Positions 19,965 to 48,179 of a stretch of 64,000 bases of DNA are shown piece after piece. The position numbers and the translations under genes are program-made. The notes beneath the pieces were generated by a model, which had not been told where the DNA came from, did no database searches, and worked only from the letters and a program-made list of their open reading frames with translations. The stretch covers positions 181,908,001-181,972,000 of the forward strand of contig OZ024740.1 of the NCBI GenBank assembly GCA_964016885.1, given 5' to 3'. How positions within the stretch are numbered: position 1 is the first letter of the stretch; each line of letters starts with the position of its first letter. The stretch is from Eledone cirrhosa. Its lineage: Eukaryota.

Positions 19965-21881
19965 GTTGTAGAAGAAGAGGTAAAAGACCATCAAAAGGTA
20001 TCCAATATGAGAGTAAGCGCTCAACCGTTAAGGAGCAAGTTAATGTAGGAAGGCTAAAAAACACTTGTGGATAGTGCAGTTTTAAATCAACATATGAAAG
20101 GTGGTTTTAGATTGATGTGTGAAATACAACGTCAAACACAACTTCGCTAAATGTTCATAATCCAACTCTAAATTAAGAAACTATTATTCCTATCGCAAAC
20201 AACTTCTCCAATCCAATTCCTTCTATAGATAACACTAGGTCACTCATTAATAATCTCTCTAATTGCAACTGCCGCATTAAAAATAAATGTCCTCTCAACA
20301 ACCATTGTCTTGATAAAAACTTAATTTATGAATGTAAAGTTATAACTAGCACCAATTCCTTCACCTATTTTGGCTCCACTTCCACCTCTTTTAAAGCTCG
20401 TCTCTATAATCACCATTCATCTTTTAAATACAAACTTAAAAGAACCAACACGGCTCTCTCAGAACTCATATGGTCCTTGAAAGACAAAAACATTAAATAT
20501 ACCATCTTTTGGAAGAAGGTTTCTTCTGCATCCTCATACTTGAACAGCTCTCTATCTAAAATCTGTAATCTCTGCCTAAATTAAAAATTTACCATTATCT
20601 CTAATCTAGATTCTATAATAAATAGACGTACAGATTTGTTTTCTATCTGCCTGCATAAATTCCATAGGACTTTTCACAAAGTATACAGCTAATATTCAAT
20701 TCTTTATCAATTTAGAATCTTTTCTCAAAGGCACATATACATACACCTCTTTAAAATATACCCATCTTCCTACCTTACTTCAAAGGGCATTATACACTCT
20801 ATAATAATTGTTTACTCATTACCCTCATTCTATCTTCACCTTGTAAAATCCTTCATAACATATACATTTGTTTTTTTGACGTTAGAATATTCATCCGCAA
20901 TTATTATTATTTTTTCTCTCTATCATAAAACTTTTTAATCTCAATTTCATCCTTAATTTATTATTTTTTTCTCCCCATCAACGAACTCATTCTTAATACA
21001 TATTAACTCTTTCTTCGCACATATTATCAACTCCTTCAATATACAAACCTTAACTTCACATTATTTTTCTCAAATCATCTAATACACAAACCTTAATAAT
21101 TTTTTAATACATATTAACTCTTTCTTCGCACATATTATCAATTCCTTCAATATACAAACTTTAACTTTACATTATTTTTCTCAAATCCTTCTACACACAA
21201 ACCTTAAACATATTTTCTCTTCGTTAATTTTGAAATTGCCACAATACTTATCAACATACACCTTTTTGACGTTAGAATATTCATCCGCAACTATTATTTT
21301 TTCTCTCTATCTTCATACATAAACTCCCATCTCTTTCCTCGTACATATTTTTCCCTTCGTTAATTTTCAAATTCTTTTAATTTATACATTATCTTCCAAC
21401 GGTTCTCAACCTCTCTATGTAAAACAATATATCTTTTCTCAGTTATAAAAACTATCTCTTTCTCTCTATCACCCATCTCTCCCTCTCCACCTTCACTCTC
21501 ATCTCCTCCCCTTTTTTCATCCTTTCCACCGCCCCCCCCCCCCCTCCCTAAATAAAATATTTTTTCCTCGTACATATTTTTCCCTTCGTTAATTTTCAAA
21601 TTCTTTTAATTTATACATCATCTTCCAACGGTTTTCAACCTCTCTATGTAAAACAATATATCTTCTCTCAGTTATAAAAACTATCTCTTTCTCTCTATCA
21701 CCCATCTCTCCCTCTCCACCTTCACTCTCATCTCCTCCTCTTTTTCATCCTTTCCACCACCCCCCCTCTCTAAATAAAATATTTTTCCCAATATCACACA
21801 TCAATCTAAAACCACCTTTCATATGTTGATTTAAAACTGCACTATCCACAAGTGTTTTTTAGCCTTCATATCATGTTCTCC

Positions 21882-21952
21882 TGTTTTATCTGATGAAAAC
21901 ACAAATATTATTGCATGATGATGTTTGTTTTTGAAATGCGCATAATAAAATA
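21882..21952 (+). ncRNA. Minimal type I HHR (inverted-arm copy)
   Basis: Same sequence as the 16324-16394 motif, on the + strand. Confidence 0.8.
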
Positions 21953-24354
21953 CATGGAACTCCTTTAACCATCTTTTGATCTTATATTATATATATATAT
22001 ATATATATTTGTATGTATGTATGCATGCAATTATGTGTGTGTCAGTTTCTCTTTGTGTTTTCACTTTGTATAAACAAGTCCCACTACATAGAAATACAAC
22101 ATGTGAAGAACAGTATCTTAAACATAAACAAATAAAGGGGTCACATCAATAAGGACATCAGGTTGGAGAATACTATCTCAAAATGCTTCAGCCAACCCTT
22201 GGTAGACTAGGAAAATACATGAAAATACAAACAATCATCATCATCGTTTTCCACGGTAGCATGGGACGGGCTGTCCGTTTTGGAGATAATCAGGTCAGAG
22301 GACCATGTTTAGTTCACCTGGGGCTGACTTTTGCTTGGTTTCTACAGCTGGATGCCCTTCCTAACGCCAACCACATTTACAGTGTGTGAAAATAATTGTG
22401 AATAATGTGTTATGGTTTTGAATCATAGTAATTCTTCCACAAATCAGTATCCTTAACTAGAATACAATACACAGCAAATCAAACACTCTATTTTTTATAT
22501 ATAAATAAGGATTGTTTCCCAATTTAATTCAATAGTCTTCATTTATCAGTGTGGCACCTATATATAAAGCGATGCAGTTGTGTGCATGAAATACATGTGA
22601 GAAATCAATCATTTTTGTGTGTGTTTCTTTTATTGTTAAGTGAGTGGAAAGACCCTTTATATTTACTAGGACTGAGATTGAAGGGATGAAGTTCACTTCA
22701 GCTCAGAGATCTATTCTGAATGCTTGCTACATAATGAACTCTGTTTAAAGCACCAAAGGACTTGGTTGTTGTGTTAAATCAAGCAATGGATTGTGATTAT
22801 CACTTCAGAACTCAGAAACCAAAAGACCTGGAACAAATATCTCAAAGCACCTTAACCAATGCTCTCACAATTCTGCAAATCTAATGGCACGTTATTTTAT
22901 TGACCCCAAAAGGGTGAAAAGCAGAATTGATTTTGGCAGCATTTGGATTTTGGGGTCAGAAAGTCAGAACAAATGTCACAAAATAGTCATCCTCTGCTCT
23001 AATGATTCATCATGATAACCATTTCACATCTGTTTTCCATGTTGGCAGGGGTTGGTTGGATCATTACTGTCAGAGACTAGACTGGTTAGAGAAACATGTC
23101 TTGCTAATATGTTTAATATTCGGCAAGTTTTCTCATGGCTGGATGCCCTTCCTTGTACAAACTACTTTACAGAGTGCAATGGGTGCATTACATCATGGCA
23201 ACAGCACCAACATATTAGAAAGAATCTATCAAAATAAAAGTCTTCTACAAAATATAACAGTGAAGAATCATTAGTTTATATGTCTTCATTGGACATTTGT
23301 TTATACTTTTGGTATCCTTATAGTTTGAAAATACAAATTAATATTGTTATTATTACTACTAATCGAATTTTGCGAATTTGCTTGGATTTATTTCTTTATT
23401 TATATCTATCAGCAATTTTATGTATCAAATAATTATCTTTATTATCTAAGAAAAGTTTATTCATTGGTTTTCTTATAGTAAAATATTGTTTTACAAGCCA
23501 ACATTATTGATTTTTGGCTTACTGCTTTTATTTTCATTTTGTATTTTCATTTTTTAAAATCCTTATTAATCAAGTGAGTGAATATGTTTAGTGAAAATAT
23601 GCTTGAATGTGTTTAAACATCTGTAATGTAATTGATTAAATTTTACAGATAATGTGAGCTGTATAGCATTGGAATTGTTCTTTATCTTGGTGTCCAATTA
23701 AATTTAACTTTATTCATTAGCCATTGTCTGTATATGATGTCAGGCTGAAATTTCAATTTTAAATCTATAAGAGAATCAATATTTAACAACTCTATTGATA
23801 ACAACCTACCACAGTGTTCAATGGTATAAAAATATCTTTTTTAAAAGTGTTTGCATTTAATTTCAACCTTTCGTCATGATTTTATCTAAGAAGCTTTTGT
23901 TAAGTTATGTTCCAAACACTTGGGTTGATAATGGAAAAGTTATGTATTTTTACCAAATCCCTTGCAATTCCTGATTAAGTTTATAGACAATGGATTTGAT
24001 AATATGTTCACAATGGGTTAAAATTATTAATACCTGTATAAAATCAGATATTTTCAATATTGAAATTTATAACTCATAATCTTAGATTTGTTGTTGTTTA
24101 GATTCAGGTCAGTTCTGATCAGGCTGACATGGTTAAAGATTTTCTATTCATGCTTATTCCAAACTTTTTCAGGCATACAGTAGTTGCTGGCATGCCTGTG
24201 TGGTTAAGAATTTTTGTTTATATCTACATTGTTTCAGATCCTTTCTTCATATCTCTCTACTTCGTACCTTGGCCAAGCATGTTCTCCACTATACCCTCTA
24301 GATAACTATTGGCTTGTGAGTAAATTTGGTAGATGGAATCTGTTGAAAGCATGT

Positions 24355-24394
<40 letters not shown>

Positions 24395-24492
24395 CTTGTA
24401 TGTATGTAAAAGGTAAACAGAAATATCAAGGCAAACAAAACAGTACATTGAAGAAATATATTATTTTAATGCTTGAAATAGCAGGAAAAGTG

Positions 24493-24527
24493 TCTTAACG
24501 TTTCGGACATAGTCCTTCATCAGAATA
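24493..24527 (-). ncRNA. Minimal HHR motif in a probable PLE pLTR remnant
   Basis: CTGATGA a ggac tat gtcc GAAACGTTA; stem I is weak. Confidence 0.55.
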
Positions 24528-26835
24528 GTTAGGAATAGAAGATAAAATAGAAAGATAATGAGTGAGAAGAGGAAAGAATGGAGGGAAAGGAAGAAAAAAT
24601 GGGGAAAAAATATGTGCATATTCGGTCAACCATTTTGGAGATTTGCTGGTCAAGGTGTATCTTACATGTAAGAGAGGTTTAGGAAAGGAGGTAATCAAGG
24701 TGTATGTAAGGTGGACATGTGTATATGTGTGTGTCAATGTGTGTGGGTGAGCATGTGCATGTGAACTGACAAGGTAAGGGGATGTACAAGAATGTATATG
24801 AATTTCTACATATGCATACATACACTCACACACATAGAAGCAGCCGAGATGAGCTGTGTAGAAAGAAGGTGGTAGTAAAGGAATGTTGATGTTTTACTAT
24901 GAATCAGCCCTGATCAACCAAATTTATTATCAAAAGTGTGCCAATCATGGGCATCTCATCTTTATGCACATATTGGTTATTCAGGACCACATCATTGAAT
25001 GTTAGCATGGTACAGTTTTTAGAAAGTCAAGCAACTTTACAAAAGCTTTCATTTTAGTTGGACAAATCTCTTCATTGCTACTATTGTTAATCTCAAGTCA
25101 GCCCTGATTTAGACTTATTTATGATCAAAGGCATTCCAACTTTGACAATCTCAACTTTTTTCTTTTCAACATAGTGTCTTTAGTTGCATATTATCCAATG
25201 TAGCTTTTTTAAAAAGCTGTATAGTATAATTTAAGGAAGATCCTGCTGTTAATTCTAGCAAGTCTACTGACTGCATAGGCTCATATTCTCATTCACTAAG
25301 GGCTTGGGCTTTTAGTTCATTCATAATTCATATAATTACCACTGCAGTAGTTTGTATCTAAATGAAATAATCATGTCAGTATGAAAATATTTTACTAATT
25401 TATTGTACTATCGTTGCATCTGAAGACTATGAGCTGATCTAATAGAATGTGCTACAAATAGCAGCCAAATCTCCCTTACACTATTCTATTATCTTTAAAG
25501 ATAATGGACCCATTGGATAAGGTAGAATTAGATGGCTGCGAAAATCAAACGATGAAATTTTTCCATTTGGTCTGAATTTGTTTATAAGTTTGCTTTATCC
25601 GAGCTGATACAAGGCAAACGAACAATTTGAACTTGTAAGAAAGACTTATTATCAGGTGCTGAGCATTGAACTCCTATAAGTTGTTATGCAAACAAGAGAT
25701 GAAACTTATTTAATATAGTATACCAGTCTGAGACAATTTAAGAGCTGTTCTTTCTCAACTAAATGAATTAACTCTTAATGTCCATGAAACCATATTAACA
25801 AAGCATTCTTGCAAAGTAGCACACAGCACTGTGACTACAATATATTAAACATTGTCTTTAATTTAATACTGCAAATTTGCCTTTCATCTATTCAAAGCCG
25901 ATTAAAAATTTGTCAGCCCAGTACTAGGGTCGATTCTTCCTCTATATTTCTTTCTCACTTCCTCACTCTCTCACTCTCTATCCTTTCCTAGAAGAAATCT
26001 GTTGTATTCCGACCTGGAGTGGAGATGGGCTCTGCCAGATTTAAAGGTGCCCTAGAAATGCTGTATGTCAATAAGTTGCCTCTACAACTTCTTTGTCAGA
26101 AGTTATGTGGCCATACATACACATTGTTATATACAGGTACATATAATGTACATGATGTACTAAAAAATAATAGAACATATATTTATATCTTTTTAATTGA
26201 CATACCCTCTAGTATATTTAGGTAAATAGGTAAGTTGTTTAACATCTTCCTGTTTAAGGGTTACTCTGCCGAGTGGTTACAGGGAACAGAATGGTGAAGA
26301 CATTTTCTCAGAGGATGGCGAGTGGGATGCACTGAAACAGCCATTCCAACTCACAGTGGTAAGTCATTTTGTGGGTACACAACTCCGCTCTGATAGCAGT
26401 GAGTAGGGATGTTGTCCAAGGGCCCAAAAAGCCACTATAATTGGAAATATGTGGGTCCCCTCAGAATATGACTAGTGACCCATCTGGCCTGGTCTGACTG
26501 TTACTCACTAGCAATATAGAGATATACAGAGGAAAACACCCATAATTGAATGTGAACTCATGAAACATAATGACAAACTAGTAAAATATGTCAAAATTTA
26601 CCTGGCCACTAGTTATACCTAAAACACTAAATCAATAATTAGATTTTCTGAAAAGATGTATGAATCATCTGCGAAGTTATAAGGTGTTTCACATGATTCA
26701 ATTACTTCAAATTAGTAACTGAATAAACACAAGGAAATGAGTTTGGTGTTAGTTTACAATTGAAATGTAATTGTTATTTTAGAGATTCCATGCAATCCTT
26801 ACTATATCACTATCATTATTGGATGCATTATTGGA

Positions 26836-27018
26836 TTGGCAGTATCGGTAGAGGGTCGGACGCCATGCTTTGCAGCACAGTTACGTCCCTTTACGAACTG
26901 AGTTCAAATTCCAGCGAGGTTAACTTTGCTTTTCATCCTTATGGGGGTCGATAAAATAAAGTACCAGTAATACACTGGGATAATTGCTGGCCTTGTGCCA
27001 AAAGTAGAAACAATTATT
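26836..27018 (+). mobile_element. SINE family B
   Basis: Near-complete copy with the ttgtgccaaaagtagaaacaattatt end. Confidence 0.8.
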
Positions 27019-29010
27019 GGATGCTGACTCTACTGAATACTGGGTTGGTTTCATTGTTTTATTTTTCATTTTAAAATTTTTCTTGAAGCACATTACAGAT
27101 ATTAGTATCTGTTAGGTTTTTTTTACTTGTTTCTGTTAGGTTTTGTATGCTAAAATATATGTAAACCAATGATAGCCATAAAAATGGTGATAATACTGAT
27201 GATTGTGTCCCCAACAAAGCAAATAGTAAGCTAAAAATGTTGAATCAATGGCTTAAGTTTCAAGTTATTATCTTGTGTGGCTGCATTTTTGTTTTCTTTA
27301 GAGCTTTTGCTTCTCAATCTAAAGACAAGTTTCCATAAAGGAAAACTGATAAAATCAAACAAAAAACATCCAATTAATCAAACAAAAATAAATAAAATAT
27401 GATCAAATTGCTAATGTTTCCTTTTAAAATAGATAAATGAGATTTAATAGCCAAAGGCTTCAATAATTTAATATCCATGAAATATTTCCTTAACACCACT
27501 GATAGATTTACATCAATGCAATTAACCTATTAGTTGAAACCACCTTCAAGGTACTAATTATTTTTTCAACCAATTCTTTGTTTTTTTTTAAAAATACATC
27601 TGTACTCTCTCAATCATTGTATTTTTATTGTTATTAATTTTCTTCAGTTTTATACGATTTTCATTTCAATACTAAATGGGGTGAAGGATCACTCATTCAT
27701 TTTTGTGTGTTAATTTTCATTCCAATTTAAATTTCCTCAATAAGGTTGTTGGATTGGCAGGCAGAATTGATTGTATCAGACAAAATGCCTGACAATATTT
27801 ACATTTGGATTTCAAATCTTATTGAGGTCAACTTTGCATTGCTTTTCATCTTTAAAGACTGAAAAAATAAAACACCAGTTAAGTACTGGGTTAAGTGTAA
27901 TTGAATATACCCTCCCCACAAACATGCGTAGCCTTGCTCTAATATCAATATTAAATGGATACTTTTACATTCTCAATTCATATCCTGTTGAGGTTGTCTC
28001 TGATTTTCATACTTTTAAGGTCATTTGAGAAACATTTTTGGTTTGAGGATACATTCTTCCATCCTTCTAACTAAACTATAAAAAAAAGAAAATATATCAA
28101 ACATAATGAGGTGTCCTTCAGTAAAGTATCTGCACCTAGAAATAACTCTAATTTTGTACATATGATGTTACATTACAATCTTAATTAAATTGCTACAATG
28201 AGAGTTGAGAACTCAGCCAAACTAAAGTAAACTTGTTCTTGATTCATAATAAATCATTTTATTCTCTTGTTGAAATATCTGGAATTAAGTTAGTGGTGGA
28301 TGAGAAGAAGTGTTACAAGTGTTGGATAAAATGCTTTGCTTTATTTATTCCAGTTTTTTATGTTCTGATTTTAAATCCTGCTAGGATCAATAAAACAAAA
28401 TACCAGTAAAATTCTGAGCTCAATATAACCTCCCTCACAGCATTGAGATTCCTCTCCCCATAAATTGCTGACCTTGTGCTTAAATTGGAAATCATTATGT
28501 GCATATGAGTGAGCATGGTCACAAACAATTTAACTAATTAAAATTAAGGTCACAGGATGCTGGGTGTCATGGATCAGATGAAGCAAGTCTATAGTGAGTA
28601 GTGATGTGCCATACTGCAAATCAAACTCATGTCAGCATGAAATATTAAATTATCACCATTTTACATCTATGTTCCATGCTGGCATGAGCTAGACAGCTGG
28701 CATTCAGACAAGGCATTACTTCCCCAACCCATATGATAGCAAGGGCTCTTCAGTTATGTCAAATGAACAAAAACCTCATCAGCGATGCACCCAGGACATT
28801 TTGTAAAATGGTTAGCCATAGAGACTATCCCAAAAAATTTTCGGAGAAATTTTAGTTTCATCATGGACACAACAACGCTCTAGTGGAGGCGCCATGATAA
28901 AATACCCAGTGCACTCTGTGAAGCATTTTGTATTAAAAAAATGCAGCCAGTCATAGAAAGCATGAAAAAGCCAGGGAGAATATTTCAGCTGTTCACAGAT
29001 TGACTTTTTT

Positions 29011-29061
29011 AGTTTCAGAAGATCCCGTTAAGGGTGAAAGCAGCGATTCTTTGCTTAAACT
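29011..29061 (+). ncRNA. HHR-like motif with CAGAAGA core (family also at 40913-40963 minus; fragment 53798-53835)
   Basis: agttt CAGAAGA t ccc gttaa ggg t GAAA gca gcgattctt tgc TT aaact. Confidence 0.6.
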
Positions 29062-29077
29062 TTAATCTGTTATTTTA

Positions 29078-29150
<73 letters not shown>

Positions 29151-29155
<5 letters not shown>

Positions 29156-30200: not shown

Positions 30201-30237
<37 letters not shown>

Positions 30238-30244
<7 letters not shown>

Positions 30245-30600: not shown

Positions 30601-30654
<54 letters not shown>

Positions 30655-30655
<1 letters not shown>

Positions 30656-31512: not shown

Positions 31513-31590
31513 CGTGTTGCCTACACGGCCATGTATATATATATATACATGTACACATACACACATATACACACACATATATACACATAT

Positions 31591-33032: not shown

Positions 33033-35045
33033 CATCATCATCATCATTTTACATCCGCTCTTTCCTGCTTGCAAGGGTGGGACGGGTCTTATTCAGCACA
33101 GCATCTCTCCACTTGTCACAATCCGTGCGTCATCTCCACCGTGAGCTTCAGCGATCTGAGGTCTGTTCTCACCGCCCATGTTTTTCGTGGTCTACCTCTA
33201 CCACATCTTCCTTCAACTGGCATTTCCCGGCACTTCTTTACCCATCGGTCATGCTCCATCCACATCACATGTCCTTACCACCTCAGTCTCCTCTCCCGTA
33301 CACTAAATTCTATCCCTCTCAGACACATTTTCTCTCTCAACACATTCACGCTGGGTCGTTCACATACATTGACATTGCACATCCAATGGAGCATGCTTGC
33401 CTCATTTCTCTCCAACTGTCGCATATCCTCTGCAGTTGCTGCCCATGTCTCACTACCATGCAACATCGCGCTTCTCACACAGGCATCATATAACCGGCCT
33501 TTCATACGGAGGGAGAAACCCTTCTTCGTCAGCAGAGGAAGCAGCTCCCTAAACTTCTTCCAACCCGTCCTTATTCTAGACACTATGGCCTTGGAACACC
33601 ACCACCATGCTAATCTGATCTCCTAGGTACCGAAAGCTATCCACCACTTCTATAGCACCCGCCTGCATTTGAAAAATGTGTCTATCAATGCGACTTCTAC
33701 TGTCTAATTTCCCTGTACATCTACTACATACATATTTCTCCCTACCTGTTAGTTTGCCTGCTATCCCACTACATCTCTTGTGTACCCAGGATCTGCATTA
33801 TGTGCATTTTATAGAATTTATGCCAGTTCCTTTTCTGCATATCGAACATGGCCATTTCCCTGACGGAATCAGAGTTTTGTCCTCTTTTCTACTCATCAAC
33901 ACTTTTGTCTTAACTAGGTTCACTCTCAGTCCTCTTGTTGCCAACTGCTGTTTCCATGGCCAGAATTTATTCTCTAGCTCCTCTACTGATTCTGCTATAA
34001 GAACCAGATCGTCAGCATAGAGAAGTTCCCATGGACAGCCAGTCTTAAACTCCTCTGCTATGGCTTGGAGGACTATAATGAACAAGAGCGGGCTGAGGAC
34101 CGAACCTTGATGTACTCCTACTTGTATCTGGAATTCCTCACTAAACTCCATTCCTACTCTGACTTTACTGACAGTACCTCTGTACAAAGTTTGCACTGTC
34201 CTCACAAGCCATTCCTCAACACCTAGTATCCTTAGGGCCACCAGATGACAGATCGGGGTACCCTATCAAAAGCCTTCTCTAGGTCAACAAAGGCTAAGTA
34301 TAGTGGCTTATTTTTCTCTAAGAACCTCTCTTGCAATTGTCTCACCAAGAAGAGGGCATCTGTTGTACTCTTGCCAGGCACAAAACCAAACTGCATCTCA
34401 TCTAGTCTGACCCTTTCTCTAATTAGTTGTGCTAATATCCTTTCTTCCACTTTCATAACCTGATCCATCATAATGATCTATAATTGCTCCTCTCCAGAGC
34501 ATTCCCTTTACCTTTGTAGCAATTTATGAGAATACTGCTGCACCAGTCTTTGGGTATGACACCACCATATATAGTATGATTGATGATGCGTGCAACCAGC
34601 TTAGTGCCTACGTCCCCTGATGCCTTCAGCATCTCAGCAACTATTCCCGATGGTCCAGCAGGCTTACCATTTTTCATTTTCTTAATCGCCTCTTGGAACC
34701 TATATTCGTCAATCTCAATAGCTGGTCCCTCTGTCGGATCTACTGAGGGTAATTTCTCTCTTTCCTATTCGTTCTCCACATTCATCAGTCTCTCATGATG
34801 ACATTTCCAGGCCTCCTTTTTCTTATCATTCGTGACACTAAGTACACCGGCATCGTTCTGGACACATTTATTTCCCAAAACATCCTGATTTGCATTGACA
34901 CACTGCCTTGCAATGTGGAACACAGCACGCCTCATCTTCCCTTCGCAGAACATTGGTAAATCTCCTACTCTCAGCGTCCCTGCGTGCTAAGTACACCTGA
35001 CGTCTAGATTCTCTCTTAGTGGCTGTATATTCTTTCCTACTCCCT
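33030..35045 (-). pseudogene. 5'-truncated RTE-clade LINE (RT with Cys-rich PHD-like insert), frameshifted
   Basis: GPSGIVAEMLKA, QFGFVPGKSTTDA, FVDLEKAFDRVPR, GVHQGSVLSPLLF, LLYADDLVL, WPCSICRKG..C..C..WVHKRC, MLHGSETW; (GAT)n tail. Confidence 0.92.
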
Positions 35046-35382: not shown

Positions 35383-38300
35383 TTACAGACACATACACAG
35401 AGTAGGCCCATTCACTCGGGCCATTCTTGCCTCTCTCACCCATCTTTCAACAAAATGCTGGGAAGAGAGCACTTCCCTCTCTACCCTGATTTTCCTTTTC
35501 AAATGAAATTTGAAAAAGTTAATCAGGGCCTCACCGAAGAGGTAAGTGCTCATCTTCAGCCCTTTCAAACGTGTCCGCCATACTATCTCTTTCGCCATGG
35601 CCACCAGACAGATAAAAACTGCCTGCCCTTCCGGACATGCCTGCACGCATCTCGGACATGCCCGGCTGACGGCACATCCATGCCTGTAGAGTTTATCCCG
35701 AACTGGCAAAACTCCTCGGTAGTACTGCCAGGCCAGGGATTTCTGGAAGATGTCCATAGGCCCCGTCACGAAAGTTCTTCCGAAGAGATTGGCTAGTTGA
35801 TTTTGGTCGACGACTAGAGTTTCCCCAAGTACGTCGTCGCTATCCCCTCCACTAATTCTCTATAGAACGCCAAGGTGGAGTTTCCACCGATCACATTTCC
35901 CGATTGGTCGAGGGCTGTGAGCGCCTGAAGACATTCCCGTCTCCAAGCGCTCCCTCTCGGTCTTCGCTTGACCCGGGACTGCAGCTCCGTCAAGGAGACG
36001 AGATGGGGAAAGGCGCGTCTAGCAAACGGCGCCCGCACCTGATCACCGTCGAGGAAGAGGTGGAGATGTCGTAGCCTGAGCGCGTGTCTGCGCATCATCT
36101 GCCACAGCATGCCCAGCCCTCCACGTAGCGGGTGTTGACAGCAGATAGACAACCATCGGAGCACGTCCCTTCCACAAAAAGCGAAAGAGCAAACGCTCCA
36201 GCACAGTCAGGCGGGGCTTAGGACAAGGGACGACGGTCAGGCGGTAGTAGATGACGGACGTGATGTACGCGTTAGCCACCTCCGTTCGATCTTTGAGGGA
36301 TAGCTTCCTCTCCGCCCATTTCTGGGTGAGAGAAGCCACCCTGCTCGTCACCTCGTCCCAGTTTTTGTCCGTCTGGAAATCCGGCCCGAACCAGATCCCT
36401 AGCAATTTACCGGTCCACCCGTCCAGCTTCCGACGACGCTGTTGGACGGCATGAACCTGCCTCTCCAGGTGCCGCGCTGCAGGCCCACTGACTTTTCCTG
36501 GTTGATCATTGCTCCTGTCACAGCTTCGTATTCTCTTAGTGTTGTGCCGATCGGCTCGATGTGTTTGGCGTTCGACACCACTACGGTGACATAGTCCACA
36601 TATGCTGACACGGATCATCCGCAACGTCTCCAGTTTGTGCAGTAATGTCTCGAGAGTCAATACGTACAAGAGGGACGAGAGGGGACATCCTTGTCGGACC
36701 GAGCGCATGATGATGAACGGTTCCGAAAGGTGAGCGATCACCCTGCACCACAGACCATATGTCGCTATGGCAGCGATCCAGCCTCTGAAGACGGGCGCAA
36801 AGCCAGTCACCCTCAGGACTGCCGCTAGGTAACGATGGTTGACCCTATCGTAAGCTTTCGACTGATCTTTATTGATCAAGGACCGACCCGTGCCAAGTTC
36901 CTTAGCTACCCTCTCCACGATGTATCGCATGAGGTGGAGGTTGTTGTGGATGGATCTACCGGGAATGGTGCACCAGACCACAAACGACAAGCGCCAACCT
37001 CTTTGCTAGCACCTTGGCAAAAATCATGAACTCTGTGTTTAGCAGTGTTATGGGCCTGAACATATCTATGTTATCCCCCTTGTTTGGATCCTTTATCAGC
37101 AGTGCCACAGCTCCTCGGCTCACAGAGCTGGAAATTCTCCCGTTCTGTTGCCAGTTGCAGTAGACGACCGCCAAGAGGCCTCCGAACAAGTCTGGCATCT
37201 GTACGTAAAGTTCATAGCGCAGACCATCCAAACCAGGCGATTTACCCCTTGTGCAGCCAGTCATTGCATCCCGTACTTCAGCGGCTGTTATCGGATTTTC
37301 GCAAAACTCCGCCTCAGTGGCCGAGAGCAGCGGCAGTCCGTCGAGGTAGACACTAAAGACCATCCCTCGATCCGGCCCGCCGCTGCCCCCGAACAGCTGA
37401 GCGAAGTGTCGTTGAAAAGCTTCACACATTTGCCCATGATCGAGTAGCATGCGCCCGACGTGGTCCACCAAAGACCGGATCGTGGCTTTGTTGCCACAAC
37501 GCGCCACCGCCACTAGGGCCCATTGAACGGCTTTCGTCCTCTCGTGTCTGAGAGCACGCACCCTAGCTCTGATAACGCAGCCTTCGTGCTTTGCATTGAA
37601 GAATTGGTCAAGGGCCAATTTCGCCGCACGTATGTCGGTCGCGTTGCCTTTGCTAAGCGCCTCGTCTAATTTTCTAACTAGTTCTCCCTCTGCTCTATTT
37701 TTCTCTATTGCTAAAGCCTTAAACCTAATTGACTCTATTCTAATCGCTCTTTTCAGAGCAAACTACCACTTGTTGTTGACGATGGCCCCCGTCAACGCCT
37801 GCTTAACTAGTTCCCTAACCCGTTCTCTGTAGGCCTTGCGCGCTGGTAAGGACGTGTTTAGCTTCCAGTAGCCGGGTGCTCGTCTATGAAGCCTAACTAA
37901 TTCAAGCACACAGATCATGAATTTGTGGTCCGTGTAGCTGACTATCTTGAATTGTGGACAGCCTATGCTAGATCTATCTATTTCCCTACAAAAACTCTAT
38001 CTAGATATAATCTGGATGACCCTATGCGGTTTGTCCAAGTCCAGATTGGCACATTCGGGAAATCCAATCGGTACCTGTCAGACAGTTCCAAACGCCTGAG
38101 CAGGTTGGTCTCCGCTGGTCACGTCCAGCACCACCAAATTACCGTCTGGGTCCAGGAAGATGGCCCGTATGGCGAGGTCCAAACCTCTCCGAGAAAGCAC
38201 AGAAACTCCTCCCCCCGATCCCGGACGGCTGGGAGATGCGTACACATCGTACGCCGAAGATCGGTGCGAAGGCCCGTGCTTCAGAGATTCTGGTCTCGCT

Positions 38301-38402
38301 GATGGCCACTACATCTATGTTTAGTGACATGATGTCGTTGAGCAGGTGACCCTGCTTCCATGACGACCCCAAGCCATGCGCATTTATTCCGAGTGAGGTC
38401 AT
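35383..38402 (-). pseudogene. Tx1-like ORF2 (APE endonuclease + RT), multiple frameshifts
   Basis: MTSLGINAHGL..ISET, KSPGLDG, FRPITLLNTE, IPGRSIHNN, DQSKAYDRVNH, VRQGCPLS, AYVDY (decayed YADD), CPRC. Confidence 0.88.
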
Positions 38403-39075
38403 GTTGAAATGGAGTGGAAAAGATGTGAAAGAACACTTACCTTACTTCTCGTAGAGGAAGGATGGTTTCTCCATCCCTTTTCACTTGATCGTCTGGTGAA
38501 GGGACCGTTGATCGTCCATTCGGCTGGTCGTCGGCTTTTCTGTGAGTATATCCGAATATACTCTCCGGTTGAGTGTCCCTCCTAGGTCTCTGAAATCACC
38601 AACAGCGTTGGGGAATTTCGTTTTAATGATTGTGTATTGTTTCTGTGCTATTCTTACCAGTCTTATGTTCGTTGGTGTTTTGATTGGTGCTGGTATTATG
38701 TAGTCGTGCTTTGAAATTATCTGTGTGTTCAATTATGTAAGTCATTAGTTTTTTGTTGTGTGTATTTATTGCTATGCATTTGTTTTTCTGAGGGTGGGGT
38801 GTGGTTCTGGTATTTTCTTGTCGTTGTTGCTGAGGGTGTGTGTTTTGTTGTTGTGTTTGCGATGTTGGTGCTTGTGGTGTTGAAGGTGCTGTTGTTGTTT
38901 GCGGTGGGGTTGCCGCCGGTGGTGATGGTGGTGCTAGTGTGGGTGGTGATGGTGTTGGTGGTGTTGCGGCTGTAAGTCTCTTTACAGTAGCCTTTACCTT
39001 TTTTTCATTTCTTTCATCCCTTTTCGAAGGCGACGATGCGCTGCTTCTGCGTTTGTGCCTTCTTGCGACCTTTTG

Positions 39076-40047
39076 CTATCCCTCTCCCTCCTCACACTCC
39101 ATGTCCGATTCTGTGAGGTCGAGGAGGGGTACCAGCTCCACTCTTTCACTTGTTGTTGTTGATGATGTTTTCAGTGGAGTCTCTGTTGCAGCTGCAGTTG
39201 GTATTACTGTTGTTGTTGTTAATACTTCCACTGCTGCTGCTGTTCTTGATTCACGTGGCGTTGATATGGGTGCCACGGACCTATCCTTCCTGCTTGCCGC
39301 CTGTCCTGTTGCTGGTGGCAGTGGAGCCGGTTTCGGAAGGAGGGTTTTTTTTCCCTTTCTCAGGGTCTTCTCATTGCAGAAGGCCCTGAGGTGAGTCTTC
39401 GATCCACAGCGAAAGCATTTCGGGCGTTTGCCCTCAACACTTAAGTGCAATTGAATACCGTTATCGAAGTCTATCACATCCGGGATAGCTTCGATGCACT
39501 CCTGGTTGGTTTGGATTAACATCTCAATGGAGGTGCCGACCCAATCTTCTCGTACTTTTTTCTGTACTTGCAGTACAGTTGTTTTGTCCTCGATTCCGAC
39601 GATGACAGACGCGGCCAGCCAAGAAGGGGCCATTCCGTGAGGACGTGGGTCAGTTTGATCCTCACAATTTTTTGCCCGGATTACGAGGGCACCAACACCA
39701 TTTCCTTGCTCCTTAGGGTCACTAAGGATTGAGCCTTTGCCTCATGGGGGTGGCAAATAGCACGTCCAAGGTGGCATATTTCTTGCCTCGGGTGATATGC
39801 GTTTTCCGCTGCCACAGACCCTAAGGCTTTTTGTATTTGAGCCTCTGTGGCTCTTTCAACCCTACGTGATTTTGTGCTTACTGTACGGTACGTGACCGTA
39901 CAGTGCTGTTGGGTTTCGAAAAATGTGTCGGCTGCCTTGCAGATTGCTCGGTGTCCGGTTTTCATCACCATCTTCTTTGCTTCCTGTAATTCCTCATTTG
40001 TTATGAGGTTCTTTGCGATACCTGAAAACGCGATTGGTTTTTCTTTC

Positions 40048-40081
<34 letters not shown>

Positions 40082-40138
40082 CAGAGCTGCTGTTACTTTT
40101 GTTGTTGCTGCTGGTACTACGACCTCCGCCGCCGCTTT

Positions 40139-40176
<38 letters not shown>

Positions 40177-40364
40177 TTTATGCTGCTGCTGATGTTGTTG
40201 CGGCTGCTACTAGTGTTTTCCTTGTCACTGTTGTTGCTGCTGCTGTTATTACGGCTGCTACTGCTATTCTTCATGACGTCAGACGAATGAAATGGCTTTC
40301 CGTATTTACCGCACACATTTTTCTTCGTTGTCGTCGTCGTGGAGAAATGTTCCACGGTATGCAC
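39076..40364 (-). pseudogene. Tx1-like ORF1 (nucleic-acid binding, zinc knuckle), frameshifted
   Basis: CFRCGSKTHLRAFC (CX2CX4HX4C); N-terminal poly-Asn/Ser region encoded by (AAC)/(AGC) repeats. Confidence 0.8.
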
Positions 40365-40981
40365 TTGCTATTGGTGAAAGCTATCAGAAACTATATTTTT
40401 ATTTTTCTTTAATGGCGTCGCTTGCGAAAGAGGCGACACCACATTTAGAGAAGGGAGGGAGAGAGACAATCTTCTCTCTGATGTAGTGACGATTGAGGAA
40501 GAAGACGGAATGAGTGGGAGTGACTTGTGAAAATTCTTTTTTGTAGCTATGTTTTTTTTTTGTTTTAAATGAATATTAGGCACAAAACCCCAATTAGTGG
40601 ATATTTAACCCCGAAGGGCCAAATAACGGGCAGAAAGACCCCTCTCACAAGGAGCAGGGTGTTTTTATCTACAATTTGTTAAAGTTTTAAACAATTTACA
40701 ATTGTTATACCGGTTAAAAATTACTATACCTTACAGAGCCGAGCCTCCGTCAACCATGGCATTCAATAATAATAATTATTATTATAATAATAATAATATT
40801 TAGTAATAATAATAAATGTGAAGACTGAAATCCAAAGAGGGATTTATAAGGATGAATATATATCAAATGTATAAGAACCCTAGAGCAAATATTTATTAAA
40901 ATAACAGATTAAAGTTTAAGCAAAGAATCGTTGCTTTCACCCTTAACGGGATCTGCTGAAACTCTTCTGAAAAAAAGAAGA

Positions 40982-41012
<31 letters not shown>

Positions 41013-41069
41013 ATATATAAACACACAGATACATGCGGACACATACATATACATGAATATATCCACATA

Positions 41070-42103
41070 TATCATTTGAATTAGTGGTGCCAACCTCAAC
41101 CGATGTTGCTCTATGAATAACTGGGACAAAATAATCCGAATGGATGAGATTGATTCAGTATCAGAGCTATATAATACATTATGAAGAGAGAAGAAACATT
41201 AGATATAATTAATAATAAGATATATCATACCTAAACTTCTTCTTTACTCCTCGACTACGTAGTTTCGTGGCATATTATGCAAAAACACTACATCACAGAG
41301 ATATAGAATTTGTGTGAGGTCTGCCGACTTATCAAGAGGATACCTCATTAAGAGTTTCAAAACACGTCTGTAGGGCGCGAGATAGAATCCGGAAAGACGG
41401 AGGGGGAGTCAATCACGTGATACAGCGGTCAAGAAACAGAGCTAAGCCTCTTATAACCATGAAAAAATACCACGGAGGCGGAGGGGGTACTTATATCAAA
41501 GCCGTAGAAGAGGTGGCTAAGGCGGCGAGAAGTATGAGTAATGGTAGCTTTCCAGCAGTCACTACACTTCAAAGGTTACTCGACCAAAGGGAGTTATAAA
41601 CAATATATAGAAACACACAGACACACGCGGACACATACATATACATGAATATGTGTGTTTCTATATATTGTTTATAACTCCCTTTGGTCGAGTAACCTTT
41701 GAAGTGTAGTGACTGCTGGAAAGCTACCATTACTCATACTCTCGCCACCTTAGCCAACTCTTCTACGGCTTTGATATAAGTACCCCTCCGCCTCCGTGGT
41801 ATTTTTTTCATGGTTATAAGAGGCTTAGCTCTGTTTCTTGACCGCTGTATCACGTGATTGACTCCCCCTCAACCTTTCGGGATTCTATCTTGCGTCCTAC
41901 AGACGTGTTTTGAAACTCTTAATGAATGTAACCTCTTGATAAGTCGGCAGACTTCACAAAAATTCTATATCTCTGTGATGTAGTGTTTTTGCATAATATA
42001 CCACGAAACTACGTAGTCGAGGAGTAAAGTAGGAGTTTAGGTATGATATATCTTATTATTAATTATATCTAATGTTTCTTCTCTCTTCATAATGTATTAT
42101 ATA
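41070..42103. mobile_element. Head-to-head pLTR pair in (TA)n with U3-A8 variant HHRs (41248-41340 minus, 41932-42022 plus)
   Basis: 41168-41617 is approximately the reverse complement of 41653-42103; (t)cctc TTGATAA gtcggca...tgccac GAAA ctacgtag TC gagg(a). Confidence 0.85.
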
Positions 42104-43404
42104 TATATGTCTAATGGTAGCTAAGATGCTTCCATAGGCGGTATGCCAGTTGAGCACTCTATGCTTCTACAGAGCAGAGTATGATAGAATGGAAAAACGA
42201 AAAATCAGTGATGCATTGCAACTCAATTTATTGCGTATTACAATTGTTTCCCCGGCGAACAGCTCGAGGTGCGACCTGTGTGTGGATTGACCTGACTCTG
42301 GATTCACAGGCTCCTCAGACACGTCTATTGATTTTGAAGCACATCCTCTTTCTGGGGTTTCTGACCCTACGGGTATATATCGTCCACATTCATCGTGTTT
42401 GCGCTTCCTTGGATTGATCACTGGTTAGTGACGTCATCATAATTCTGACCACTGGTAGCACCCCACTGACCATCGGGGCGTGAGCTTTCACTCACCCACT
42501 GTCCCATCGGCAAAATTACTGCTGTGTTTGACTGCTTACACGCCCACGCGCACACCCACACATGCACAGAGACACGGACAGATACATAAAGAATAGCTTG
42601 CGTGCTTACTTTCACACATGTACGCACAGAAACATACACACATATCCATGTTTACACACACACATAAACAGTGACACAATTATGTGTGTATATGTACGCA
42701 TGTGTACGTGTGTGTGTGTGTGTATATATAGGTGCATGTATGTGTGTGTGTGCCTCTCTGTGTGCATGTATGCGTATATTTGTGTGACTGTTTAGGTGTG
42801 TGATATGTTTGTATGTTTCTGTGCGTACATGTGTGAAAGTAAGCACCCAAGCTACTCTGTATATATCTGTCCGTGTCTCTGTGCATGTGTGTGTGTGTGC
42901 GCGCTTGGGAGTGTGAGCAGGCAAACACAGCAGTAATTTTGCCGACGGGACAGTGGGTGAGTGACAACTCATGCCCTGTTGGTCAGTGGGCTGCCACCAG
43001 TGGTCAGAATTATGACGACGTCACTAACCAGTGATCAATCGAAGGACGCGCAAACAAGTTGAAGATGGACGTTATAGACCCGTAGGGTCAGAAACCCCAG
43101 AAAGACGATGTGCTCCGAAATCAATAGACGTGTCTGAGGAACCAGTGAATCCAGAGTCAGGTTGATCCACACACAGATCGCACCTCGAGCTGTTCACCGG
43201 GGAAACAATTGTAATACGCAATAAATTGAGTTCCGATGCATCACTGATTTTTCGTTTTCCATTCTATCACACTCTGCTCCTTAGCAGCATAGAGTGCTCA
43301 ACTGGCATACCGCCTATGGAAGCATCTTAGCTACCATTAGACATATATTATGCTCCTTTACATGTACAGCGCTTACAGCCAATCGCCATGGAGTAATTCC
43401 AGTA

Positions 43405-45045
43405 CTCTTCCTCTTTAAAGGACACCCCAATCCCTTCTAACAACACCTACATGAGCCTGTTGATCAACCACACCAACTACTTCATTAGACGCATGAGATG
43501 GCATGGATTCCCCCATGACAGAAGGACCCAGCAGCACGCCTACAATGATCCTCACTACCGCCTCAAATGGATCTTCAAATCAAGACGACACCCACCACAT
43601 AACGCACTGCTGGAAGAATTTGAAAACCGTATCGTCAATCGTCCGAAACATCAAATTCCGAAGGAATAATTGTTTCTACGTTTGGCACAAGGCCAGCAAT
43701 TACCCAGAGCATTACTGGTACTTTATTTTATCGACCCCGTAAGGATGAAAGGCAAAGTTAACCTCGCGGGATTTGAACTCAGAATTCCGAAGGAATAATA
43801 CACGCAATAACGAATACCTCAGGAAACTCAGCTCCACAATCAAAAGCATGGAAAGATGCCCGGATTTACCTGTGCCCTCGGACAAAACCGGTAATGTATA
43901 CATGCTTGACCAATTTACATACAACGACTGCATTGGGAAAGAGGTTATGAAAGACTATAAGACCACAGGACAGGACAACCTGGATAACATCAACGCCACG
44001 ACCAAAAAAAAATAATGACAGGGTTAGAAATAGATGATAGGACATACCCCTATGTACCCAAAAAACCGCGGATATCCATTAAGGATCACAAATTAGACTT
44101 TAGGACAAATTTCCCCGTTAGGTTAATAGCACCCTACAAATCGGACATAGGTAGGGCCAGTAAGAATATCATAAATAGGATACTACCGGTACTTAGGAAT
44201 AAAACTAGGCTTAACTTATGGACCTCCACTAAGGAGGTAATTGACTGGTTCCTGCTATTAGAGAGCAAGCAACGGGTAAATTTCATTCAGTTGGAAATAT
44301 TGAATTACTATGCGTCAGTATCATCAGTAATCATGAGAGCCATGGCTAAGTCCAACCTCACTAGAGAGGAAGAAAACATCATAATAGATGCGAGAAAGAT
44401 GTTAATTAGCTTCGACAATAAATTATGGGAGAGGAGAGACAGACCCGACAGTTTCGATATTACTATGGAGTCGAGTGACTGCGCGGGTGACGGACCTGGT
44501 GGGAATATATCTCCTCCAAAGACTAGTGTAGGAGATCCAAGGAATCGGCGGAGGAATATATAGAGACGACGCACTATTTACCTTCCGCTCCCTAAACCCC
44601 AACCAGCTGGAGCGTATGAGGAAGGTCATATCACATTTCTTTAAGCAACACGGCTTATCCGAGCTGATAGATCCTAGCACTAAGACGGTGAATTTCGTTG
44701 ATGTTACTCTGGAACTAAATACGGGCATACAACGACCATACCACAAGCCCAATGAGAACCTGCAATATATGAACAGGCACTTGAACCACCCCAAGTCCGT
44801 CATAGACGCCATAGTAAAAGGGGTATCCAAACGCATATCCACACTGTCGGCTAACGCAGACGTGTTTAACCAGCACGCCGACTATTATAATGAGGCACTG
44901 CACAGGGCCGGTTACACAGAAGCCATAGTGTACAGGGAAGGGCCTAGTGGCGAGGCACGCGGATATGAGTATAGCAATAGTACTTCCATAGGTAGACAGT
45001 ACAACCTGGAACTAGCATCTAGGAATAGGAGTAGCAGTATAGATG
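43405..45045 (+). pseudogene. PLE RT (Hydra-clade-like), frameshifted, interrupted by a SINE
   Basis: SLKDTPIPS, FIRRMRW, SDKT, IKDHK..VRLIAPYKSDIG, FDITM, GGIYRDD, NFVDVTL, NHP. Confidence 0.88.
43666..43782 (-). mobile_element. 5'-truncated SINE family B inserted into PLE-2 with target-site duplication
   Basis: Flanked by aattccgaaggaat(aat) at ~43654 and ~43783. Confidence 0.88.
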
Positions 45046-46020
45046 GGCTACTTCAGAGTAAGCGAAAGAGGAAAAAGGAAAAGGAAGAGGAGGGGGAGTG
45101 GAAGGAGGTGAGAAGGAGAGATGAAGAGGAAAAAGAAAAGAATTACATATACCTATGTATGCTGAGGTTTCCCTTAAGTAGTTCAGCAAGTGGGGAAAAG
45201 AATGACGTTGCAGCCATTGTCTACCCAGCCAGATCATGAGGGGGATTGAGAGTAAGGTAAGTCCTACGCAATCGGTGTTTACATGCGGTTACAAGTTCGT
45301 CTTTTTTGTTTTTCCCCACTTGCCGAACAAGTGAGGGGAAACCCCAGCATACATAGGTAGATGTAATTCTTTTCTTTTTTTCTTTTTACCTCTCCTTCTC
45401 ACCTCCTTCCACTTTCTCTCCTCTTCCTTTTCCTTTTTCCTCTTTCGCTTACCCTGACGTAGCCCATCGGGATTTTGTAGCCTCAGTACCCTCACCCCCG
45501 TAAATTCTATATAGCAATGTCCGCAAACGCAATACCAGCTAAAAATATAGCAGCTGTTTTAGATTATAGTTTTATTTATTATTTATCATTATTTAATTTT
45601 TTAACATTATTACTTATTTCTTATCTTTTTATTTTAATTTTTATTTATTAACGTTTTAATTTTCTAATTTTATAACTTCCCACCCTTAGATTCCGCTAGA
45701 ATTCTTTTTTCGCCTGCTTTCTAGCTAGCCTAATTCATCTACACTCCTTAGAATTCGACTTAGCCTACTGCCTCATTGTTCTACAGGCAAGTTCAGCCAC
45801 CCACCGCCAGGAAAGATTTAATTGTGTTTACATGAAATTTTGATCAATACTTTAGACAATTACAATCTTCAGAAATGCATGATTATCTCACGCACATATA
45901 TGGAATTACCCCTTGAAAAGTTCGGCTATTTATTATCACGCTAAAAATCTAATTTAGTCCAGAAATAGCCGGCGAAACGGCTTGCGCTCTGCCGTCGGGG
46001 TCTTGATCATTTTCCTATAT
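45043..46020 (+). mobile_element. Separate PLE-type 3' end with a ~170-bp inverted duplication and a U3-A8 HHR
   Basis: 45043-45210 is approximately the reverse complement of 45308-45468; HHR at 45908-46001; ends in a TA-rich tract. Confidence 0.65.
45908..46001 (+). ncRNA. Type I HHR with U3-A8 core (TTGAAAA) and full stem III
   Basis: acccc TTGAAAA gttcggctattt...aaatagccggc GAAA cggc ttgcgctct gccg TC ggggt. Confidence 0.75.
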
Positions 46021-46495
46021 ATACTTATATATATATCGTCAGTGGTGCTATTATGTTTCCTCCCGTTGTATTGTATGTAAATATGTGTATATATATATAT
46101 ATATATGTGTATATATATATATGTGTATGTATATATATATATACTCTGATATAACACCTGCAACCATGATGGTATCCAATGATGTTGACGTGTTCTTCTT
46201 TTTGGCAAATATCATATTGGTTAAGAGTGTGGGACTGGCTTTGTGCAGTGCCTTTGCTCACTATAAAAGCTTCAGGGGACAGGCATTGCTTTATATCTGG
46301 AGATCTCTGCACTTGTCATCACATGGTAGCATGGGCCCAGCACTATGTGACAATAATTATCACAGGTGTAGTGTTTGTACCAGAGTTTTCAAGTTGCTGG
46401 CTGGGCTAAAAAGTCGCACTCGTTCAGCGCATCGGTAGGGGTTCTCCTACATGGATATAAAGTAGTGGCCGTACTCGAAAACGAGTTGGCAGCCA

Positions 46496-46562
<67 letters not shown>

Positions 46563-46584
46563 CATACATATATATATACATACA

Positions 46585-47820
46585 TTAAAGTTCTAGTTTG
46601 TAGGAAAGAAAATAAGGCGCCGGTTCCTTCCGGGAAATGGCCATGCTCAGTGTGTAGGAAAGGCGTAAGTAGAAACTCCATTTTATGTCCCAAATGCAAA
46701 GTATGGGTGCATAAAAGATGTAGTGGGATCATAGGTAAGTTAACTAAGAACATAGATTTTACATGTGGCCGGTGCTCTGGTGCAATAATTAGCAGCAAGT
46801 GCCCACAAAATAATAGCTCTTTCAATTGCGCAGAGGGTTCTATAGAAATAGTGGACAGCTTCCGTTACCTGGGTGACAAAATCAGAAGTGGGGGAGGGCG
46901 CCCTGAAAGTACAGTAGCTAGAGTCAGAACTGGATTGAAAAAGTTCAGAGAGCTTATACCACTATTAGCCGCTAAAGGGTTCTCCCTAAAAATGAAAGGC
47001 AGGCTGTATGATGCCTGCATACGAACAGCAATGTTGCATGGCAGTGAGACCTCGGCATTGTGTGCAGAGGATATACGCAGACTAGAGAGGAACGAAGCTT
47101 GCATGCTCCGCTGGATGTGTAATAGTAATATACGCGAACGGCGAAGCATAAACGAACTAAGGGAAAAATTAGAAATAAGAGGGATCAGATGTTGTTTACT
47201 CGAGAGAAGGCTACGTTGGTATGGTCACGTAATGCGCATGAAAGACGACAGCTGTATAAAAAAGTGCAGGGCAATAAAGATAGACGGTAGCCACGGAGTA
47301 GGCAAACCCAGAAAAACCTGGGACGACCTGATAAACTCCGACCTCACACACTTACACCTCTCCAAGACAATGTCACTGGGCCGAGATCTTTGGCGGCACT
47401 CAGTAATAGAGAAGACACGCCTTACCTAAATACAAAGTAAAACCTACTACAGTCAGTAGGCATCTCTAACAAAATACACCCCCGTCCCACCACCCCCACC
47501 CCATCCACACTGCCCTTTCAATGTAAAGTTATGTTGGTGCCACAACATCCAGGCCGAAACAAATGAGATCGTGTAGGTGTCACGACAAAAAAACACACAG
47601 TCCACGTTGTAATGTGGCCGTGTAGGCAACACGGTAAAAACCTCCCAGTCCCACACTGTAAATGTGGTTGGTGTTAGGAAGGGCATCCAGCTGTAGAAAA
47701 CCCGCCAGAGAGTCCTATGCGAGCAAGACAACCACTCTTGCCTCATGTGGGAAAACTCCCGTCCAAGCCCATGCAAGCGTGGAACATGGACGTTAAACGA
47801 TGATGATGATGATGATGATA
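46585..47820 (+). mobile_element. RTE LINE 3' fragment (ORF to 47429) followed by a SINE-A-related tail with (GAT)n
   Basis: WPCSVCRKGV..CPKC..WVHKRC..CGRC, FRYLG, MLHGSET, RLRWYGHV..GKPRKTW. Confidence 0.88.
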
Positions 47821-48179
47821 AATATATATACACATATATACACATATATATATATAGCATGTATTCATTTTCTACTACCATTTTAAAGGGTCCGTCGAGC
47901 TGCCGATTATAGAGTCGGGTAAGATCGATACAGATCGAACCTTGAGCTGATCACTGGCGAAACGCGCGTCACCTACCAATTAATATAATGAAGGAGTAAC
48001 CAATCGTCCTTGTTATCTTTTCAATATATTACAGAGAAGTGAACCTAAACATCGAGTGCTCACCCGGGTGAACCTGCAGTAACTGCAAGTTACACTCCCT
48101 AGATATTTAGCTCCCTTCTTTGTCGAGCGCTTAGCTGGAACACCGTGGAATTGTTCTACACCACTTCCTCCCTTCGGAT

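Follow-up and report, generated by a model that had tools for sequence, protein, structure and literature searches.

We analysed a window of 64,000 nucleotides of the Eledone cirrhosa genome (contig OZ024740.1, positions 181,908,001 to 181,972,000 of the forward strand), in which a short motif precedes the open reading frames (ORFs) of three Penelope-like elements (PLEs) of the Hydra clade. Sequence comparison identifies this motif as the local form of a more widespread module, RCUC-Y…R-UN-GAGY-NCU, which is present twice between a hammerhead and the start codon. Inserted copies of the elements end a few bases before either module, each of which is predicted to fold into a hairpin, and the hairpins therefore likely tell the reverse transcriptase (RT) where to start. 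Each hairpin probably causes internal, target-primed reverse transcription to begin about 2-6 nt 5' of it, both target strands being primed, one per hairpin. The module bears on how PLEs choose the start of reverse transcription and how their inverted ends with a one-sided tail originate. Being short, conserved across the clade and at a constant distance from both ends, it shows which bases to mutate.

Two modules in the leader

The first-pass annotation of the window had described three strings in which GCTCC is followed by a second conserved box. All three are present (Table 1) and are the sole window matches of GCTCC-N8-14-AGCGCTTA, a pattern that had any match in 0/100 shuffles of the window. 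Throughout the animal genome searched (~3.0 Gb) the pattern matches 341 times, compared with 6 matches of a reversed-pattern control, and its spacers are many and varied. As described, the motif lies between the end of a pseudo-long terminal repeat (pLTR) and the start codon in all three elements, 50, 12 and 11 nt upstream of the start; the start codon of the third copy (element 3) is GTG. The PLE context is supported by the RW, DKT and CxCx5C motifs of Hydra-clade PLEs in the ORFs downstream. Among the first 30 genome matches, 27 precede one common N-terminal protein motif and represent four families, named A-D (the exceptions are L007, L024 and L030).

The annotation further held that the other non-coding DNA of these families does not align. 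This view has to be given up, as a homologous module lies 55-75 nt upstream of GCTCC in 4/4 families examined (A-D), ending in GAGTGCT with ACTC before it. Its guess that the motif is a "hairpin 2" is supported, since the motif is the second (module 2) of two homologous leader modules, each predicted to fold. The claimed conservation of sequence holds for the generalised form RCTC-Y…R-TN-GAGY-NCT. The exact string is lineage-specific: it is found in 17/30 and 9/40 protein-selected loci of the same genome, where looser patterns match 21/30 and 24/40 and where the denominators include 5'-truncated copies, and in 0/51 metagenome modules. The copy at 43352 carries CAGC where most siblings have GAGC, so that one stem pair is broken in that copy.

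Metagenome contigs were scanned with an alignment of 30 homologues, which gave 78 loci, 47 of them with a recognisable N-terminus and 39 of the latter distinct. Exact modules occur at least twice in 19 of the 39 distinct leaders, once in 13 and not at all in 7 (at least one in 32/39); several of the one-module and no-module leaders are cut short or carry one mismatch. The same search gave modules in 1/349 ORF-interior windows and in 4/39 reverse strands, both serving as controls. From start to start, modules 1 and 2 are 55-83 nt apart in the metagenome leaders and 87-103 nt apart in families A-D. A scan of viral contigs and a first metagenome scan found no relative. One metagenome locus (L408:179-260) has one clear module, its 3' copy ends beyond that module, and a look-alike of the 3' half of the module overlaps its first codons, so that module 2 may have moved into the ORF.

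Published Hydra consensuses (Craig et al. 2021, PMC8557442) show the module as well, with two copies in the leader of Hydra-1_Ajap from a sea cucumber, one copy at the 3' ends of Hydra-2_Ajap and Hydra-2_Amil, and diverged forms in Hydra-1_Obim and Hydra-1_Crog. As to whether the motif is absent from other families, which the annotation had named as the point that would count against it, the exact string is missing and the generalised module is present in both the Hydra consensuses and the metagenome leaders. Three 8-letter forms gave 11 matches outside the Hydra entries of the Naiad and Chlamys consensus files, none of them with a full module in the short passages concerned, in which line breaks can hide matches. 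One of these look-alikes sits in coding sequence.

Insertion ends and head-to-head copies

In element 3 of the window, the 3' repeat turns into (TA)n at the point where, in the 5' copy, a short TA-like tract and then the motif follow, and the same is seen in elements 1, 2 and 4. (TA)n is the insertion target of these elements. Overall, insertions end about 2-6 nt before module 1 (site S1) or module 2 (site S2), within a TA-like tract that is followed by (TA)n, and module 2 is absent from the ends before it. The last matching base lies 3-5 nt before RCTC and is nearly equal at S1 and S2 within a family. TAT or ATA directly precedes 40/51 modules, compared with a background of 33%.

In family A, 20 copies were picked by their 5' region and their 3' ends fetched by position; 20/20 end at the two sites, 11 at S2 and 9 at S1. 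The kilobase upstream of module 2 holds 15 TA-like 5-mers in this family, and the ends use only the 2 beside modules. Queries upstream of both modules returned 18 S2 ends, 10 S1 ends and 2 read-through loci in family B (n=30), and 8 S2 ends, 19 S1 ends, 2 ends elsewhere and 1 read-through locus in family C (n=30). With queries between the modules, S2 ends were obtained for 28/30 B, 27/30 C and 25/30 D loci. Fourteen family C ends placed at -91 belong to S1, their placement having run on into the TA repeat. A separate junction class for 14 family D loci was rejected, as 12/14 end in (TA)n at S2 on the right strand. In sequencing run X1, loose (TA)n ends occur at both sites, and contig depth across the motif falls from ~750,000 to ~4,700, a more than 100-fold drop in depth, which is not copy number.

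Metagenome loci end in a comparable manner. Among 61 loci examined, 44 have a hammerhead match, and these comprise 14 without a 5' reference, 8 at a contig end, 2 read-through loci and 20 junctions. When 3' junctions were called automatically, 12/20 lay at most 8 nt before a module. After same-family references had been chosen by eye, 16/18 distinct junctions fit, a count that adds L365 (at a contig end, yet in (TA)n) and for which junction placement was chosen per locus by eye; L391 and L408 are the two that do not. In a separate set of copies (L265, L274, L281, L292 and L296) the 5' side joins (TA)n immediately before module 2 or within it, which shows that the S2 tract can give rise to 5' ends as well.

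Head-to-head (fold-back) insertions were found 61 times. Of these, 52 join an S1 end to an S2 end, 2 are S1+S1 and mutually near-identical, 1 is S2+S2, and 6 have one or both ends elsewhere. Classifiable fold-backs thus have one end per site in 52/55 cases (P = 8e-7 against a null of 2/3, set at this value because many queries required an S2 end). In 48 measured pairs both arms copy the same upstream segment, with no bias in which arm reaches further 5' (S1 in 18, S2 in 14, equal within 10 nt in 16). Where the S1 arm reaches further (18/48 pairs), the S2 arm alone holds module 1, an anatomy also seen in element 4 of the window. In these pairs each arm holds sequence missing from the other, so neither is the fold-back copy of the other and the arms were templated separately.

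A hand count in families B, C and D showed that 46/96 arms stop 250-275 nt upstream of module 2, upstream of the hammerhead. This stop is not the edge of the reference, since some B and C arms run further. It likely reflects an RNA 5' end about 250-275 nt upstream of module 2 and a template that is uncleaved; the arms show no clear clustering at the hammerhead cut site. Longer copies exist too. Five family A units (L064-L068) are arranged seamlessly head to tail at intervals of ~3,657 nt, the joints retaining both modules in intact form, and 5' direct repeats extend up to 700 nt or more upstream. The 5' and 3' repeats show 4.2 differences within a copy versus 8.9 between copies (20 copies). 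Tandem and circular templates would both fit the long copies, and the likeness of the repeats does not separate them.

The predicted hairpin and its likely role

The module is ordered as RCTC, a pyrimidine, a variable loop, a purine, TN, GAGY and NCT, and its predicted fold has a 4-bp stem, a 2-nt bulge and an inner stem. The inner pyrimidine-purine pair, which is outside the selecting pattern, is present in 50/51 metagenome modules (CG 36, TA 13, TG 1, unpaired 1), and inner pairing occurs only at a bulge length of 2 (98% versus 0-29% at other lengths). On a tree of 40 proteins, the inner pair of module 1 requires 7 switches between CG and TA, at least 6 of them forced by well-supported branches (24 labelled rows). 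The outer pair of 58 modules is GC in 54, AU in 3 and other in 1; in three families of the genome, A-U has replaced G-C in module 1. In an alignment of the 58 modules, 93.7% of cells pair, compared with 24-56% for slid structures; 0/500 shuffles reach as high, in a test that does not control relatedness among modules. In 51 modules with short flanks the hairpin has a mean probability of 0.92. These compensatory changes support a bulged hairpin in a folded single strand.

Several observations weigh against this fold or against its link to the ends. Three of the 4 outer pairs never vary and are therefore silent on structure, and the pattern-based selection of modules favours outer-stem pairing. 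RNAalifold recovers just the 4-bp stem, the minimum-energy folds of three window 50-mers lack the hairpin, and two modules of the same genome fold weakly (0.06 and 0.39). The strand asymmetry (GU 8, AC 4 of 73) is not strong enough to decide between RNA and single-stranded DNA. Regarding the ends, the 3' copy of L408 passes its one clear module and that of L391 stops 12-16 nt short of a module. The loci include near-duplicates, and only best-scoring matches were counted. Moreover, inheritance could account for S2 ends if (TA)n already followed the parent copies, with a template that lacks module 2.

Inheritance is part of an alternative in which the ends are either taken over from parents or set only by annealing of (TA)n to the UA tract, while the hairpins serve, for example, RNA capture or stability. 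All mapped ends indeed fall within TA-like tracts that continue into (TA)n or a similar sequence, a few of them at neighbouring tracts (L158, L180), and solo pLTRs far outnumber bodies by X1 depth, which makes inheritance possible. We still regard this alternative as quite unlikely, because family A uses only 2/15 tracts, those beside the modules, and because inheritance leaves the S1 ends, the matched spacing at both sites and the one end per site in 52/55 fold-backs unexplained. It is likewise unlikely, if a little less so, that the modules are read as DNA, double-stranded or as single-stranded hairpins, by the GIY-YIG endonuclease (EN), which would cut or resolve a longer intermediate at the TA tract while the RT starts elsewhere. 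The tail has been attributed to EN-mediated resolution (PMC8557442), the EN of D. virilis needed the tail for recognition (cited in PMC11167929), and GAGYRCTY is nearly palindromic with an invariant core. Against such a DNA signal, the bulge is fixed at 2 nt and compensatory changes keep the pairing across it, which indicates a folded single strand, two independently templated arms need two primings anyway, and RT starts coincide with genomic ends in the one PLE tested in vitro (PMC11167929).

The annotation had also considered an internal promoter or a translation element, to which a splice signal may be added. The position of the motif 10-50 nt before the ATG would suit such a function, and the leaders of D. 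virilis Penelope and Chlamys-3 hold a promoter and an intron (PMC8557442). Yet the motif is duplicated with its first copy far from the ATG (90-160 nt), the 46/96 arm stops 250-275 nt upstream suggest an RNA start well before the motif, and the insertion ends ~2-6 nt before each module are left unexplained, so that we find this explanation very unlikely. A second role of the motif in translation may exist.

Three more specific candidates were rejected. A branch point with a 3' splice site is incompatible with families A and C and with 12/31 other leaders, none of which has an AG between the motif and the ATG; no splice-like joint was seen near the motif in contigs of two sequencing runs (contig kind unrecorded). 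A hepatitis delta virus (HDV)-like ribozyme was dismissed since no GG follows the motif for P1.1 and the P1 helix GAGTGCT:AGCGCTT is not kept elsewhere. The same pairing taken as a long-range helix was discarded for lack of conservation in other lineages, where both modules read GAGCACT and the helix is broken.

If the hairpins set the start of reverse transcription, insertion could proceed as follows. The RT-EN protein would bind RCUC…UN-GAGY-NCU in the RNA, and its endonuclease would nick both strands of the (TA)n target. Each 3'-OH would anneal to the UA-rich tract beside one hairpin, so that S1 and S2 would each yield one cDNA; the two, equal in polarity, would be joined at their far ends. 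The expected outcome is a pair of inverted pLTRs with a one-sided tail, consisting here of module 1 plus spacer. The abundant short fold-backs would arise if nothing but the 5' leader were copied, from an RNA whose likely start is ~260 nt upstream of module 2. For full-length and tandem copies, the template would have to be tandem or circular. A dimer of RT-EN is plausible by analogy with the model for PAc, a PLE discussed below. In its full form, this amounts to a programmed twin priming, in which two RT-EN molecules on two bulged hairpins of 25-35 nt would each set one nicked (TA)n strand on the adjoining UA tract, with cDNAs from fixed internal sites. We propose this full form tentatively, as a serious possibility that falls somewhat short of probable. 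If true, PLEs would owe their inverted pLTRs and one-sided tail to the hairpin, which would serve a telomerase-related RT as a portable mark for the start of copying.

Parallels exist in other retroelements. Twin priming in L1 uses two primers from one target site, as in the proposed mechanism; the two L1 cDNAs copy different parts of the RNA, whereas here one segment is copied twice, each time from its own fixed and marked start. The 3' stem-loop of L2/CR1 is, like the predicted hairpin of the module, a small RNA structure, and recruits the RT. Stem-loops of long interspersed nuclear elements (LINEs) lie 5' of the start and get copied, while the module lies 3' of its own start site. The template-flanking elements of telomerase RNA, where priming occurs by annealing to a short tract matching the repeat, offer a further likeness in the proposed way of priming.

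The window elements and related systems

By the features published for the clade, namely RW(K/T/R), DKT, a CxCx5C linker, no CCHH, a pLTR hammerhead and (TA)n targets (PMC8557442), the window elements are Hydra-clade PLEs, with likeness to reference Hydra proteins judged by eye and the 40-protein tree being one without other PLE clades. An N-terminal RWK-type motif replaces GxKF/Y (RLRWT, RMRW and RIRW in elements 1-3), and the change from DKG to DKT is present (SDKTN, SDKTG, ADKTG). The CxCx5C linker is found in elements 1 and 4, and element 3 has its last Cys changed. The CCHH pattern was not found in the window element proteins. The C-terminal domain is of the GIY-YIG type, with a weak Pfam match (E 0.018). 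A hammerhead core pattern is present in elements 1 and 4, in addition to the 44/61 metagenome loci, as a pattern match; a simple pattern missed families B and C, whose hammerhead regions have a very long or atypical stem II (L044:1232-1318; L008:1255-1340). Among 150 of the 176 Rfam matches listed for the window there is no hammerhead, and none overlaps the three motifs. Among named protein relatives, the nearest comes from Argonauta hians (41% identity). For residues 1-480 of one family A copy, the AlphaFold model reached a predicted local distance difference test (pLDDT) score of 92, and the top Foldseek match of the modelled RT is TERT (template modelling (TM) score 0.44), with other RTs scoring close.

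Table 1. Positions of element parts and modules in the window
Feature	Position	Strand	Remark
Element 1, family A: module 2 (motif)	20014..20036	-	pattern match
Element 1 ORF, Hydra-clade PLE, RT then GIY-YIG-type EN	17687..19964	-	frame broken relative to siblings by a short deletion after the first codons
Element 1 3' pLTR: hammerhead-like core and stem II	16340..16386	-	pattern match only
Element 1 3' pLTR: module 1, ACTC/GAGT variant	16253..16281	-	
Element 1 3' end: switch to (TA)n at TA-like tract before module 2 (S2)	16192..16211	-	
Element 1 inverted arm	20122..21996	+	ends in (TA)n at tract before module 1 (S1, 21978-21996)
Element 2, family B: module 1	43271..43299	+	
Element 2: module 2 (motif), CAGC for GAGC	43352..43375	+	ATG at 43388
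Element 2 inverted arm, holds module 1 (42152-42180)	42101..42562	-	ends at S2 (42101-42118)
Element 2 Hydra-clade ORF, broken	43388..45239	+	stops, frameshifts, unrelated insert near 43665-43783
Element 3, family C: module 2 (motif)	48110..48133	+	start codon position 48145 (GTG)
Element 3 5' pLTR	47852..48109	+	5' half of module 1 deleted in this copy
Element 3 Hydra-clade ORF, broken	48145..50661	+	
Element 3 3' pLTR with module 1 (52927-52980)	52746..53027	+	(TA)n end at S2 (53011-53027); module 2 uncopied
Element 4 (Hydra-clade, 5'-truncated) inverted arm, module 1 at 53906-53929	53841..54325	-	(TA)n ~57 nt past module 1
Element 4 main arm, RT/EN fragments 54289-55822, hammerhead-like motif 57179-57220	54289..57284	+	(TA)n end just before module 1 (S1, 57268-57284)

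The end of the inverted arm of element 4 is assigned to S2 by analogy, module 2 of its own family being unseen. Pieces of pLTRs of a further family with GAGCACTC-type modules, a type that the pattern of the first-pass annotation misses, lie at 15457-16183 on the minus strand (modules at 16145-16174 and 15534-15563, a third near 15964), and one such piece ends in (TA)n at 15457-15471. The 3' untranslated region (UTR) of element 3 contains an array of ~150-bp units of alternating types (50800-52000, plus strand), that of element 1 ~220-bp repeats. Elsewhere in the window, 95-bp tandem units form an array at 120-3900 with a higher-order period of ~600-700 bp. ORF fragments of non-LTR retrotransposons lie at 36043-37762 and 33798-34262 (both minus) and at 46560-47429 (plus); from their motifs, we take them to be L1/Tx1-like and RTE-like.

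Among known systems, PAc, a PLE of the Poseidon clade, is close in behaviour. In vitro, its reverse transcription initiates internally at two sites matching genomic ends, both target strands are nicked and extended, and RNA 3' of the start sites is required (Frangieh et al. 2024, PMC11167929). PAc and the elements described here have in common two discrete end sites that bound the tail, and AT-rich targets. They differ in that the PAc starts are in the ORF, at an AC-rich stem-loop and without target homology, whereas here the starts are in the leader, at a UA tract that matches (TA)n and is followed by the duplicated module. A binding motif of PAc was hypothesised within the first 172 nt and left undefined (PMC11167929); by eye, the PAc template as printed there shows no such module.

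The inverted pLTRs of PLEs and their one-sided tail of 30-40 bp have been described (Arkhipova et al. 2013, PMC3846280), the tail likewise in PMC8557442. Our elements share with them the head-to-head inverted pLTRs and the extension on one side only, while their tail is ~55-100 nt long. Self-priming, possibly on an antisense template, was proposed for those PLEs (PMC3846280); here, 18/48 arm pairs cannot be mutual copies. The family A unit of ~3.66 kb also differs from the Hydra elements of under 3 kb in PMC8557442. The main text of that paper contains neither "hairpin" nor "stem-loop", and its parts covered here do not describe the module or its tie to the ends. Hammerheads and retrozymes are treated in PMC4209133, bioRxiv 10.64898/2026.07.22.740005 and PMC7229834, in whose parts covered here the module was not found. 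In the literature searched, which included few subscription papers and no visible figures, we found neither a start-setting signal nor a description of the module. Two internal starts and a one-sided tail are known already from a Poseidon-clade PLE. The module gives an annotation rule for the boundaries of Hydra elements and may be a tag in the RNA that guides a telomerase-related enzyme in target-primed insertion.

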